Of a stretch of DNA of 64,000 nucleotides, positions 1-64,000 are shown piece after piece (the first letter of the stretch is position 1; each line of letters begins with the position of its first letter). The position numbers were made by a program, and so were the translations under genes. The DNA is from an uncultured Solirubrobacteraceae bacterium (lineage in GTDB: Bacteria; Actinomycetota; Thermoleophilia; Solirubrobacterales; Solirubrobacteraceae), in contig CAWJSW010000007.1 in the NCBI GenBank assembly GCA_963845635.1, positions 83,655-147,654 on the forward strand, in the 5' to 3' direction. The notes beneath the pieces were generated by a model. The model saw only the letters and a list, made by a program, of their open reading frames with translations. It was not told where the DNA came from and did no database searches.

Positions 1-1
1 G

Positions 2-424
2 AGCGGGCACAGCGGCTCCTCCACGGGCTCGTCGTCCTCGACCGCCGCCGGCACAGCCACGACGACGACGGGCACCGGCAAGACGTCCTCGCCCGCCGCG
101 AGCCTGAGCGTGGACACCACGCCCAAGTTCGCGAAGCCGCCCGCGTCGGCACCCGTGCAGAGCGGCGTCGTGCAGATCGCCTACCGCAACATCGCGATCG
201 ATCCGGACACCCTCAGGGTGAAGGTCGGCAGCACGGTCAGGTGGACCAACTACGACTCGGCGCAGGCCAACGTCACCAGCGTCAGCGGGCCACAGCGGAT
301 CGCCTCGAAGAACTTCGGCGAAGGCGGCAGCTTCGAAGTCAAGCTGCGCAAGCCCGGGGTCATCCACTACGTGTGCACGTTGTACCCGGCAACCATGAAC
401 GGCACGATCGAAGTCGTGAGCTAG
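2..424 (+). CDS. Cupredoxin/plastocyanin-like domain protein with a Ser/Thr-rich linker, 5'-partial, probably exported
   Basis: Frame is open from the window edge ([23 protein letters not shown]...). It contains [11 protein letters not shown] and [16 protein letters not shown] cupredoxin-type strands, but both His ligand positions are substituted. Confidence 0.7.
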
Positions 425-1200
425 AAGACGGCGAGGCCCTCGTCGGGGGTGGACGCGGTCGCGTACGTGCGGCGCGGTATCCGGCCCGCGCCGCGTGCCA
501 GGCGCCCCGCTTCGACGGCCGCGCGCATCGCGGCGGCCATCGCCACGGGGTTCTGCGCGCGCGCCATCGCCGACGCGGCCATCACCGCGTCGCAGCCGAG
601 CTCCATCGCGAGCGCCGCATCGGAGGCGGTGCCGATGCCCGCGTCGAGCACGACCGGCACGTCCACCGCTTCGCGGATGAGGGCGATGTTGTAGGGGTTG
701 CGGATGCCCATGCCGCTGCCGATCGGCGACCCGAGCGGCATCACAGCCGCGCAGCCGAGGTCGGCGAGGCGTCGTGCGAGCACGGGGTCGTCGGTGGTGT
801 ACGCGAGCACGACGAAGCCCTCGTCGAGCAGCTGCTCGGCCGCGCGCAGCAGCTCGGGCGCGTCAGGGAGCAGCGTGTCCTCGTCGCCAATCACCTCGAG
901 CTTGATCCAGTCGGTGGCGAACGCCTCGCGCGCGAGGCGCGCGGTGATGACGGCGTCGCGCGCGGTGCGACAGCCGGCCGTGTTGGGCAGCAGCTGCACG
1001 CCGGCGGCGGCCAGGACGTCGATCAGCGATCCGTGCGCCGTCGGATCGACCCTGCGCAGCGCGACCGTGACCAGCTCGCTGCCGCTCGCCGCGATCGCCT
1101 GCGCGAGCAGATCGAGCGACGGGAAGCCGCCGGTGCCGAGCAGCAGCCGCGAGCGCATCTGCCGGCCAGCGATGCTGAGGATGTCCTCGGCCGTGCTCAC
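421..1200 (-). CDS. thiG: Thiazole synthase
   Basis: [37 protein letters not shown] and [10 protein letters not shown] motifs. Start placed at GTG 1200, just after thiS; the longer track ORF overlaps thiS. Confidence 0.95.
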
Positions 1201-1219
1201 CGCCCGTTGCACGTGCAGA

Positions 1220-1423
1220 TCATCCTCCCTGCATCGCCGTGAGCACCTCCACGCGCGCGTCCTCGACAAGGCTGAACGACTCCCACGCCGCGCGCGGCAC
1301 GACCTCGCCGTCGACCGCCACGGCGACGCCGCGTGCGTCGACGTCCAGGCCAAGGCGTGCGAGCACGTCGACGACGCTCTCGCCGGCGCGCACGTCGGAG
1401 CCGTGACCGTTGAGCACGATCAT
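1220..1423 (-). CDS. thiS: Sulfur carrier protein ThiS
   Basis: 67 aa, MIVLNG...[12 protein letters not shown]...[10 protein letters not shown] with C-terminal GG; lies between thiO and thiG. Confidence 0.95.
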
Positions 1424-62080: not shown

Positions 62081-62134
62081 AACCGGACCGTAAAGTCCGC
62101 TTGTGCTAGGCTAAGCGGACCGATGAGTCCAGTT
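62081..62134. promoter_or_regulatory. Two tandem TetR-type operators flanking a TAGGCT -10 box
   Basis: AACCGGAC-N6-GTCCGCTT (62081-62102), TAGGCT (62107-62112) and AAGCGGAC-N6-GTCCAGTT (62113-62134). Confidence 0.7.
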
Positions 62135-62152
62135 CGATCGAGGAGGCCTCCC

Positions 62153-63616
62153 TTGAGCGCTGAATCGCAGACTTCCAACCGCTGGCTGGTCCTGGTGATT
62201 GCCTGCCTGGCCCAGTTCATGGTCGTCCTTGACAACACGATCGTGAACGTCGCCCTGCCCTCGATCCAGCATGGCCTTCAATTCTCCCCCGCGAACCTCC
62301 AGTGGGTCGTCAACGCGTACACGCTGATCTTCGGAGGATTCCTGCTGCTCGGGGGACGCGCGGCGGACCTGCTCGGCCGCCGGCGCCTGTTCGTGGCCGG
62401 GGTGGCGCTGTTCGCGGGCGCTTCCATGCTCAACGGCCTGGCTCAGTCCTCGACGATGCTGATCCTGGGTCGCGGTCTTCAGGGTCTCGGAGGGGCGCTG
62501 GTCTCCCCTGCGGCCCTGTCGATCATCATGACTACCTTCCAGGACAATGCCGAGCGGACGAGGGCGCTGGGCGTCTGGTCTGCGATCGCCGCCGGCGGCG
62601 CCGCCTTCGGGCTGCTACTCGGCGGCGTCCTCACAGACCTGGTCTCCTGGCGCTGGAACTTCTTCGTCAACGTCCCCGTCGGGATCGCCACGGTCTTCCT
62701 GGCGTTGCGTTTCGTGCCGGAGTCGCGCGCAGAGCTGGGTCACCGCCGCTTCGACGTGCTCGGCGCGACGACCGTGACAGCGGGGCTGCTCGCGATCGTC
62801 TTCGGCATCGTCAAGGCACAGGCGTGGGGATGGGGAGCTGGGCGGACGCTCGGCGTGATCGGCGTCGGGGTCGCCTTGCTCGCGCTGTTCGTGGCCCTCG
62901 AGGCGCGCTCGCCGGCGCCACTGGTGCGGCTCTCGATCTTCCGTGTCCGCTCGCTGGCAACAGCGGACGCCGTGATGATGCTGGTGGCGTCGGCGATGTT
63001 CGGGATGTTCTTCTTTGCCTCGCTCTACGTCCAGGATGTCCTCGGTTACAGCCCGCTGAAGGCGGGCCTCGCGTTCCTCCCGATCTCGCTCGGGATCATC
63101 GTCGGCGCCGGCATCTCTCAGGGGATCATCAAACGTTTCGGTGTCCGCAACGTGTCGGTGCTAGGACTGCTGCTCGCCACCGCCGGTCTGCTTTATCTGA
63201 CGCAGCTCCCCGTTCACGGCCACTATGTCTCCGATCTGCTCGTGGGCCTGATGCCGATGTCGATCGGGATGGGTCTGGTGTTCGTGCCGATCACACTCCT
63301 GGGTACGTCGGGCGTCAGCAACGACGACTCAGGCCTGGCCTCGGGACTGTTCAACAGCGCCCAGCAGGTGGGCGGCTCGCTGGGGCTCGCGATCCTTGCG
63401 ACGCTTGCCGTCGACCGCACCTCGAGCCTGCTCGGCAGCGGAGCCTCAGCCGACGCCGCGAGCCGCGTGGCGGCGACGGTGTCCGGCTACCACGTCGCGT
63501 TCCTGGCCGCAGCGATCATGATGGGCGCGGGTGCTGCTCTGCTGGTGCTGCGTCTTCGCCCTCGCCATGTCGCCGGATTGAGCCTCGATGCTTCCGCGGT
63601 CACAGCCGCCGTCTGA
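62153..63616 (+). CDS. MFS efflux transporter, DHA2 (EmrB/QacA) family
   Basis: LDNTIVNVALP, WVVNAYTLIFGGFLLLGGRAADLLGRR and WRWNFFVNVPVG; AGGAGG before TTG. Confidence 0.92.
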   Translation: MSAESQTSNRWLVLVIACLAQFMVVLDNTIVNVALPSIQHGLQFSPANLQWVVNAYTLIFGGFLLLGGRAADLLGRRRLFVAGVALFAGASMLNGLAQSSTMLILGRGLQGLGGALVSPAALSIIMTTFQDNAERTRALGVWSAIAAGGAAFGLLLGGVLTDLVSWRWNFFVNVPVGIATVFLALRFVPESRAELGHRRFDVLGATTVTAGLLAIVFGIVKAQAWGWGAGRTLGVIGVGVALLALFVALEARSPAPLVRLSIFRVRSLATADAVMMLVASAMFGMFFFASLYVQDVLGYSPLKAGLAFLPISLGIIVGAGISQGIIKRFGVRNVSVLGLLLATAGLLYLTQLPVHGHYVSDLLVGLMPMSIGMGLVFVPITLLGTSGVSNDDSGLASGLFNSAQQVGGSLGLAILATLAVDRTSSLLGSGASADAASRVAATVSGYHVAFLAAAIMMGAGAALLVLRLRPRHVAGLSLDASAVTAAV

Positions 63617-63629
63617 GAAACTAGGCACC

Positions 63630-64000
63630 ATGAGGAGGGATGCGCTGGCCAACCGGCAGCGTCTGCTCGAGGCTGCCGACACTATGTTCCGGGAGCACGG
63701 CGTCGAGGTAGGCGTGGCCGAGATCGCTGCCGCCGCAGGGGTCGGGCGCGGCACGCTGTTTCGCAACTTCGCCAGCAAGGATGCTCTGATCACAGCGGTA
63801 CTTGCCGAGCGCATCGGCGAGGTCCTGGCGACCGGGCGCGATCTCCTCGAGAACGATCCCGACGACGCAGACGTGGCGTTCCGATTCGTCGAGGAGTTGA
63901 TGGCACGCCAGGAGGAGAACCGCGCGCTGCTTCAGACGCTCACCGAGGAGACCTTCCAGGTCGCGCCCGAGCTGGCACGCACGCACACCGCGATGATGAC
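63630..64000 (+). CDS. TetR/AcrR family regulator, 3'-partial and absent from the ORF track
   Basis: MRRDALANRQRLLEAA...GVAEIAAAAGVGRGTLFRNFASKDAL; the frame stays open to the window end. Confidence 0.88.
   Translation, partial: MRRDALANRQRLLEAADTMFREHGVEVGVAEIAAAAGVGRGTLFRNFASKDALITAVLAERIGEVLATGRDLLENDPDDADVAFRFVEELMARQEENRALLQTLTEETFQVAPELARTHTAMM

Follow-up and report, generated by a model that had tools for sequence, protein, structure and literature searches.

Division of the two glutamate codons by protein export in uncultured Solirubrobacteraceae that carry a five-armed tRNA(UUC)

It is generally taken for granted that synonymous codons mean the same thing, and the location-linked codon biases that have been described are, to our knowledge, weak, confined to signal peptides or seen only at the level of the gene. 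This report concerns the use of the two glutamate codons, GAA and GAG, in a 64-kb stretch of DNA from an uncultured Solirubrobacteraceae bacterium (the window, 64,000 nucleotides, C7:83655-147654) and in the genome to which it belongs (G000; 4.17 Mb, 69% GC, 16 contigs), together with an atypical tRNA gene in the window, at position 25416, which has the anticodon UUC and an additional helix and is referred to here as the five-armed tRNA. An earlier note, made from the sequence of the window alone, had proposed that GAA tracks protein export and had looked to bldA of Streptomyces as a precedent. bldA specifies a tRNA-Leu with anticodon UAA, and a single TTA codon gates a whole gene through the regulated supply of that tRNA. 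The two cases are alike in that one tRNA is, or appears to be, the sole reader of a rare codon in a high-GC actinobacterium and that the codon is enriched in a functional class of genes. They differ in that GAA accounts here for 10-17% of the Glu codons of cytoplasmic proteins and 45-70% of those of exported proteins, that the choice flips within genes and that individual sites keep their codon. Such a pattern, in which even the inner and outer loops of polytopic membrane proteins differ, fits poorly with a gating of gene classes in the manner of bldA.

Other described systems share some of these features. In Magnaporthe oryzae the mRNAs of cytoplasmic effectors are enriched in the AA-ending codons AAA, CAA and GAA (bioRxiv 10.1101/2025.11.10.687658). 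There, as here, A-ending codons of split boxes, read by U34 tRNAs, mark a subset of the secreted proteins. Decoding of the AA-ending codons is reportedly linked to thiolation of U34 in the tRNA. The Magnaporthe bias, however, belongs to a eukaryote, concerns the mRNA as a whole, extends to CAA and goes with a secretion route and with low expression, whereas in G000 CAA takes no part (0.12 vs 0.10), the choice is made per residue whatever the route and is conserved at individual sites, and it is associated with a tRNA of aberrant structure and with the apparent loss of the canonical one. Natural reassignments of sense codons include that of CUG in yeasts and that of ACA from Thr to Asp in uncultivated Acidimicrobiales (bioRxiv 10.64898/2026.05.03.722492), the latter, like the present case, in a high-GC uncultivated actinobacterial lineage. 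Shared with such reassignments are a tRNA in which anticodon and body do not match, the apparent loss of the canonical isoacceptor and perhaps a removal of the codon from invariant sites (here five sites in two penicillin-binding proteins, PBPs). In reassignments, however, the codon aligns with another standard amino acid in conserved columns, whereas GAA aligns best with Glu, and any change in its meaning would have to be subtle, i.e. a modified, isomeric or ambiguous residue. Bacterial signal peptides are biased towards rare codons and AAA, and the Akashi effect is the selection of accurately read codons at conserved sites. A correlation of codon choice with export and a preference for one codon at conserved sites are found here too; the signal-peptide region is nevertheless GAG-like, the bias lying in the mature part, and the site conservation (phi of 0.7-0.8) and location dependence are far above the modest effect in control genomes. 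A literature search found no description of a synonymous-codon split that depends on location, nor of codon usage in the Solirubrobacterales.

Genes of G000 were called with a custom six-frame codon model, trained iteratively, which gave 3911 genes at a coding density of 87.5%, and were assigned to export classes with a custom heuristic classifier based on Sec, lipoprotein and Tat signals, anchors and Kyte-Doolittle transmembrane (TM) segments, which miscalls some gene starts. The pooled fraction GAA/(GAA+GAG) was 0.166 in cytoplasmic genes (n=2485), 0.263 and 0.277 in the membrane gene classes, 0.454 in genes with a signal peptide (n=262) and 0.597 in lipoproteins (n=67), while the GC content at third positions (GC3) of non-Glu codons was flat over all export classes (0.856-0.884). 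The per-gene fraction was bimodal, with modes at ~0.1 and ~0.7. When GAA-type and GAG-type genes were compared they differed at Glu (0.71 vs 0.09) and at Lys (AAA 0.33 vs 0.09) only, and Gln and all the four-fold families were used in the same way in both. The comparison that the earlier note had proposed, of GAA against export with GC3, codon context and recent acquisition controlled, was carried out genome-wide and the association stays. It is present in each GC3 stratum and whatever base follows the codon (e.g. 0.37 vs 0.12 before C), and a quasi-binomial generalized linear model (GLM) with GC3, A at the third position of four-fold codons, CAA fraction, local GC and length as covariates gave an odds ratio (OR) of 4.77 for exported genes (z=21). 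The link between GAA and export is real and is stronger than had been claimed, and the note was also correct that other codon families stay GC-rich, Lys being the only one to move with Glu, and that neither generally low GC3 nor gene transfer explains the bias. The heuristic classifier understates the rule, because in more than half of the GAA-type genes that it calls cytoplasmic (56%, vs 15% of controls) a start codon farther upstream would give the product a signal peptide, and several of the remainder resemble giant surface proteins.

Relatives were analysed with the identical pipeline on 400-800 kb of sequence. The rule was present in all four genomes of the genus that were examined, namely G000, G005 (GAA 0.114, 0.461 and 0.59), G002 (0.155, 0.464 and 0.716) and G003, the last of these from one locus, at which the gene for a substrate-binding lipoprotein (SBP) has a GAA:GAG count of 24:8 and the adjoining permeases 0:6 and 2:4. 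It was not seen in three genomes from two other families of the order (0.130 vs 0.139 in G025, 0.057 vs 0.068 in G039 and ~0.02 throughout in G031), nor in seven SBPs of Solirubrobacter soli, which total 9:142. The null result in the three other-family genomes means that the pipeline is not the source of the association. A weak rise of GAA as GC3 and local GC fall, and a heuristic classifier with some miscalled starts, are what might be expected if the pattern were an artefact or a confounder, whether of low GC3, acquired secreted genes, expression, gene calling or signal-peptide errors. Such an explanation is hardly credible. GC3 and the codon families other than Glu and Lys are unchanged, the OR stands after the controls, and contrasts within genes and within operons, through which alone and not by direct measurement expression level was handled, exclude expression and transfer as causes. 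Orthologues in congeners moreover keep their gene-level GAA state (r=0.87), the same pipeline gives nothing in the three genomes from other families or at the S. soli loci, and misclassification dilutes a signal and does not create one.

The rule acts per residue. In secreted genes codons 1-20 are GAG-like (GAA 0.13-0.15), and beyond about codon 60 the GAA fraction is 0.45-0.60. Bitopic proteins flip codon at the TM helix, the GAA:GAG count passing from the N side to the C side, in three examples, from 4:16 to 54:14, from 3:19 to 13:5 and from 3:21 to 7:1. The positive-inside rule was used to orient 326 polytopic proteins, in which GAA made up 0.187 in the inner loops and 0.357 in the outer ones. 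Within a single flagellar cluster the axial proteins exported by the type III system (FlgL, FlgK, FliD, flagellin and FlgE) total 115:42, and the cytoplasmic FliG, FliI, FliM and FlgN total 11:114. Export of flagellar type III substrates is post-translational and independent of Sec. Candidate Tat substrates showed intermediate use of GAA. The flip at TM helices, the split between loops and the flagellar cluster point to the final location of the residue as the cue, rather than to its gene or operon, the message, the expression level or the way of export; we infer that its structural role counts as well.

In proteins that are exported whole, sites of the two codons alternate along the chain, and local context and neighbouring residues predict the codon weakly (cross-validated area under the curve, AUC, of 0.64). 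The influence of the 3' and 5' flanking bases is small and is found in all classes. The neighbours of GAA sites are more often charged (K/E) and less often hydrophobic, a composition that suggests surface positions. These data bear on the idea of a signal in the mRNA, in which in-frame GAA and AAA would form an A-rich mark, or would serve to avoid Shine-Dalgarno-like AAG-GAG, so that messages for exported domains are targeted or protected. GAA and AAA alone are enriched, and they are the codons that remove AAGGAG-like strings; GAG is also somewhat avoided before G in all classes. Against this, GAG is kept in the cytoplasmic domains of the same mRNA, the effect holds for each following base, GAA-type genes show no shortage of AGG or GGA and context is a poor predictor. 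The dependence on site conservation described below would be unexpected for an RNA mark, and an explanation of this kind is judged quite improbable.

Conservation of the two codons was followed in orthologue pairs between G000 and two congeners (n=257 and n=347; median amino-acid identity 72%). At conserved Glu residues of signal-peptide and lipoprotein genes the counts of GAA-GAA, GAA-GAG, GAG-GAA and GAG-GAG were 121, 11, 12 and 48, and 29, 4, 5 and 25. The corresponding phi was 0.71-0.72, and 0.76-0.79 in GAA-type genes, whereas in the same genes it was ~0-0.1 for Asp, Asn, Tyr, His, Cys and Gln. With all genes pooled phi was 0.52 for GAA and 0.43 for AAA, and no other transition pair exceeded 0.16; the AGC and TCN codons of Ser, which are mutationally disconnected and provide a yardstick, gave 0.72. 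In GAA-type genes GAA was replaced within the genus by GAG at 4% of sites, by CAG at ~6%, by GAC/GAT at ~5% and by AAA or AAG (AAR) at ~1%, while in cytoplasmic genes GAA was replaced by GAG at 42%. In a genus that lacks the rule and served as control (G031 vs G039, 78% identity) phi was 0.11 for Glu and 0.10 for Lys. It is shown by these comparisons that selection maintains the spelling at each site and that exchange between GAA and GAG is roughly as rare as exchange between distinct amino acids. The suggestion that GAA is synonymous with AAA was ruled out by the rarity of exchange between them.

Alignment to outgroups indicates what kind of residue GAA stands for. At GAA sites of GAA-type genes the outgroup residues were E in 25%, D in 17%, R in 7% and K in 3%, with log-odds of +2.1 for E, +1.4 for D and +1.0 for Q, and at GAG sites they were E in 37%, Q in 10% and D in 8%. 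GAA sites are acidic and Glu-like, with an added affinity for Asp, and are not Lys or Gln sites. Compared with the outgroups, the genus has less Asp (4.0-4.5% vs 6.4-6.9%) and less Arg (5-6% vs 7-9%) in its exported proteins; the amino-acid composition of the cytoplasmic proteins is nearly the same as in the outgroup families. Two class A PBPs were compared with 121-123 distant homologues, below 50% identity, taken from a 50%-identity representative library. Their GT51 domain, although extracytoplasmic, is almost wholly GAG, and GAA is found in the variable regions and C-terminal tails, gappy and tail positions having a GAA:GAG count of 10:1. Five sites have Glu in at least 88% of the homologues, among them the catalytic E of the EDxxF motif and that of the RKxxE motif, and all five are GAG, for which the chance given local usage is ~0.02, with five sites in two paralogues. 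The mean frequency of Asp in the alignment columns was 0.11 at GAA and 0.03 at GAG.

If both codons specify plain Glu the bias might be kinetic, GAA being decoded by the unusual tRNA at a different speed that suits export-competent segments or segments whose translation is matched to translocation or folding. In favour of this, the bias begins past the signal peptide and covers the exported segments, the codon flips at TM helices, intermediate values are seen in Tat substrates, whose folding precedes export, and a lone, unusual GAA-reading tRNA is plausibly slow. This explanation is nevertheless thought unlikely. Flagellar type III substrates obey the rule, GAG sites are interspersed in exported proteins and conserved singly at a level like that of amino acids, the invariant catalytic Glu remain GAG, and nothing of the kind is seen for Gln codons, although their tRNAs have the same U34/C34 architecture. 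The flagellar substrates and the invariant Glu, with the GAG-like signal-peptide region, disfavour the proposal in the note that GAA tunes elongation during export.

The five-armed tRNA was parsed manually. It has the acceptor stem GCGCCCG/CGGGCGC, the discriminator A73, the D-stem GCUC/GAGC and the anticodon loop CU-UUC-AA, its D-loop bears an extra 7-bp hairpin capped by UUCG, and a TATTAT box lies upstream of the gene. With the canonical bacterial tRNA-Glu(UUC) it shares the CUUUCAA loop, and its acceptor, anticodon arm and T arm are likewise standard; it differs from it in the 96-nt length of the gene, in the fifth helix in the D-loop and in a D-stem and body unlike those of the tRNA-Glu(CUC) of G000. 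The body is Lys/Asp-like and not Glu-like, the 3' half being nearest to tRNA-Lys(UUU) and tRNA-Asp. Full-length copies, of 88-100% identity, were found in 22 of 24 congeners; in their alignment 99% of cells are paired and five pairs show compensatory change, two of them in the extra hairpin and the others in the acceptor stem and T-stem. The sole Glu-bodied tRNA of G000 has the anticodon CUC. No canonical tRNA-Glu(UUC) was found in any of the 25 genomes of the genus by BLAST, nor in the whole of G000 by ARAGORN, and it is present in the families f3, f4 and f5. From these searches the five-armed tRNA is the only predicted reader of GAA that is conserved in the genus, and together with the UUC anticodon and the strong Rfam match this bears out the link that the note had drawn between GAA and the tRNA. 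In the sampled genomes the rule coincides with the presence of the five-armed tRNA and the apparent absence of the canonical tRNA-Glu(UUC). The five-armed tRNA was not found in S. soli, and a covariance model of the 96-nt form, run against the outgroups and S. soli, returned only ordinary tRNAs of 72-75 nt among the matches listed.

Several further tRNA genes were noted. Homologues of the five-armed tRNA occur at two loci of family f3, L024 in G026 and L026 in G031, about 150 nt upstream of the anticodon motif CTTTCAAGCCGC; their D-loop is interrupted at the corresponding position by ~120 nt. Both genomes have a canonical tRNA-Glu(UUC) as well as the homologue, and in G031 GAA is ~2% of the Glu codons and there is no rule. 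ARAGORN misparses the tRNA at 25416 as having a 4-base anticodon, and its 98-nt "tRNA-Glu" at C14:178979 folds poorly and looks like a false positive in GC-rich sequence. The gene at C8:437859-437932 (-) has the body of a tRNA-Gln(UUG), with U1-A72 and the same acceptor and D arm, combined with the anticodon UUC and G33. It may be a pseudogene or a recent copy with a shifted anticodon, and was dropped as part of the system, being found in G000 alone, with tRNA-Gln(UUG) at this place in congeners. The ARAGORN "tRNA-Pyl (CUA)" at C11:223703-223784 and several tRNAs of 89-98 nt elsewhere are probably false positives of GC-rich sequence.

The synthetases of the genus are unusual in two respects. 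The only aspartyl-tRNA synthetase (AspRS) is of the archaeal, non-discriminating type (aspartate--tRNA(Asn) ligase, 435 aa; C10:62960-64267), where other sampled families of the order have a long bacterial-type AspRS. There is also a second, genus-specific lysyl-tRNA synthetase (LysRS) of 528 aa, 47% identical to the housekeeping enzyme (C2:15720-20812, outside the window), which is translationally coupled to the alpha and beta subunits of lysine 5,6-aminomutase and to the KamB reactivase. At positions which we take to line the lysine pocket the paralogue has Y->M, N->S, A->G and F->D changes, and it retains the acidic residues that presumably hold the terminal amine. It was considered as the enzyme that charges the five-armed tRNA and is probably not: in G003 the paralogue is fragmented, the tRNA is intact and the SBP gene that was checked is GAA-rich. 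In a further congener, G004, an SBP gene and the LysRS paralogue (C4:607830-609042 and C7:68332-69845) are both split over frames, which suggests indel errors of assembly and not true pseudogenes. The weaker parallel split between AAA and AAG suggests a wider distinction of A-ending from G-ending codons in the lineage.

A complete reassignment of GAA to one of the standard amino acids Asp, Lys and Gln might be considered on the strength of the Lys/Asp-like tRNA body, through which it would act, of the non-discriminating AspRS and second LysRS, and of the enrichment of Asp at GAA-aligned outgroup sites together with the low Asp of exported proteins. It is very improbable. Glu is the commonest residue at GAA-aligned sites, Lys and Arg are not enriched there, the enrichment of Gln is lower than for GAG, and the exchanges of GAA with GAC/GAT, AAR and CAG are no more frequent than those between distinct amino acids. 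The outgroup and within-genus exchange tables led to the rejection of Lys, Gln and Asp as the meaning of GAA.

GAG is used for residues in the cytoplasm and, in the two PBPs, for deeply conserved catalytic Glu wherever located, and GAA for labile, surface-like acidic positions that end outside the membrane, whether by Sec, as lipoproteins, by Tat (more weakly) or by flagellar type III export. The best reading of this division, which we hold tentatively and to which we give somewhat less than an even chance, is that decoding of GAA by the five-armed tRNA would not be equivalent to that of GAG at the level of the protein, because only protein leaves the cytoplasm and the choice tracks how critical the residue is. 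GAG would be read by the canonical tRNA-Glu(CUC) as plain glutamate. The five-armed tRNA would deliver at GAA a product not fully equivalent to it at the protein level, a Glu-like acidic residue that may be modified, isomeric or ambiguously decoded, and selection would favour it on surfaces exposed outside the cytoplasm but work against it within the cell and at critical sites. A more specific proposal, that GAA is a separate coding state for a non-standard or tRNA-modified acidic residue, such as an isomer or derivative of glutamate, or for a deliberate mixture of Glu and Asp, at exposed extracytoplasmic positions, with a second and weaker split of AAA and AAG that the LysRS paralogue may serve, must be regarded as doubtful.

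Several points weigh against non-equivalence of the two codons at the protein level. There is one glutamyl-tRNA synthetase only, no dedicated charging or modifying enzyme was identified (modification genes were not surveyed), and the LysRS paralogue is probably unrelated to the five-armed tRNA. Glu, and then Asp, is the commonest outgroup residue at GAA sites, and about half of the sites in GAA-type genes that align with Glu of a single outgroup are GAA; since Glu is commonest, plain glutamate at GAA stays fully possible. The comparison of invariant Glu comprises only the five sites in the two PBP paralogues. Of the codons one mutation away from GAA only GAG and GAC are common, and new GAA sites would be expected to arise at E or D whatever GAA encodes, so that the alignments are limited in either direction. 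Large code-inference surveys report no change of GAA.

Whichever reading holds, two Glu codons are partitioned by the destination of the residue, evolve like different amino acids and are apparently read by structurally unrelated tRNAs. Should the products differ, this would be a new kind of natural expansion or ambiguity of the genetic code, devoted to the extracellular proteome, and were GAA a separate coding state it would amount to a natural split of a sense-codon box in the service of the outside of the cell. Should they be the same, selection on codon identity at single sites would be unusually strong and its mechanism undescribed. The GAA fraction is in either case a predictor of exported proteins and of membrane topology in these uncultured soil bacteria, and it has picked out flagellar substrates and exported genes with miscalled starts. 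With one tRNA, one codon and abundant exported proteins the system is also a testable one.

The genes of the window on which the earlier note was based follow the same rule (Table 1). Every one of its hand counts was reproduced by the recount, the frequent GAA of its RCC1 and IPT/TIG genes included, and its gene identities were upheld by Pfam, apart from the two labels marked in the table. The window totals are 87:658 (0.12) for cytoplasmic genes and 47:35 (0.57) for the signal-peptide class.

Table 1. Features of the window, with Glu codon counts (GAA:GAG) and, where available, Lys codon counts (AAA:AAG)
Feature	Position in window	Strand	Details
Five-armed tRNA(UUC)	25416-25511	-	96-nt gene; Rfam RF00005, 66.6 bits (threshold 29); 25-nt insert
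lpdA-type dihydrolipoamide dehydrogenase flavoprotein, cytoplasmic contrast	5376-6761	+	GAA:GAG 0:34; Pfam
glpK glycerol kinase, cytoplasmic contrast	25657-27147	+	GAA:GAG 0:39; Pfam
E2 acyltransferase of 2-oxoacid dehydrogenase complex, cytoplasmic contrast	9860-11152	+	GAA:GAG 4:31
AhpC/redoxin, cytoplasmic contrast in the lower-GC half	45665-46276	+	GAA:GAG 2:11; Pfam
Lipoprotein gene, 3' part ("cupredoxin fragment" of the earlier note, family label unchecked)	1-424	+	GAA:GAG 3:0
Secreted esterase/S9-like protein, GAA-type	36358-38736	+	GAA:GAG 34:17; AAA:AAG 4:16; GC3 0.93
Type IV pilin-like protein, N-terminal methylation motif	43662-44180	+	GAA:GAG 9:5
Secreted SGNH/GDSL lipase, GAA-type	47692-48468	-	GAA:GAG 19:6; AAA:AAG 9:10
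Secreted RCC1-repeat and IPT/TIG protein, GAA-type	59386-61059	-	GAA:GAG 25:6
IPT/TIG surface protein, GAA-type; called start probably misses the signal peptide	2762-3859	-	GAA:GAG 13:6
Membrane-anchored exported protein ("lytic transglycosylase" of the earlier note; no Pfam match)	18249-19202	-	GAA:GAG 7:4

The closest named records to the glpK of the window are uncultured Solirubrobacteraceae metagenome-assembled genomes (73-79% identity) and S. soli DSM 22325 (69%). Orthologues of the esterase were not found in G003, G004 or S. soli, and searches for HEXXH, NEP and CuA motifs gave nothing informative. A weak open reading frame at 25022-25528 (+), with a score of 9 and a GC3 of 0.72, runs antisense across the tRNA gene and is almost certainly no gene. 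Two genes, at 40882-42054 (+) and 61482-61838 (-), were classed as secreted by the heuristic and are yet GAG-type (1:20 and 2:7). Their N-termini look cytoplasmic, the product of the first resembles a DEAD-box helicase, and the codon rule flags both as false positives of the signal-peptide predictor.

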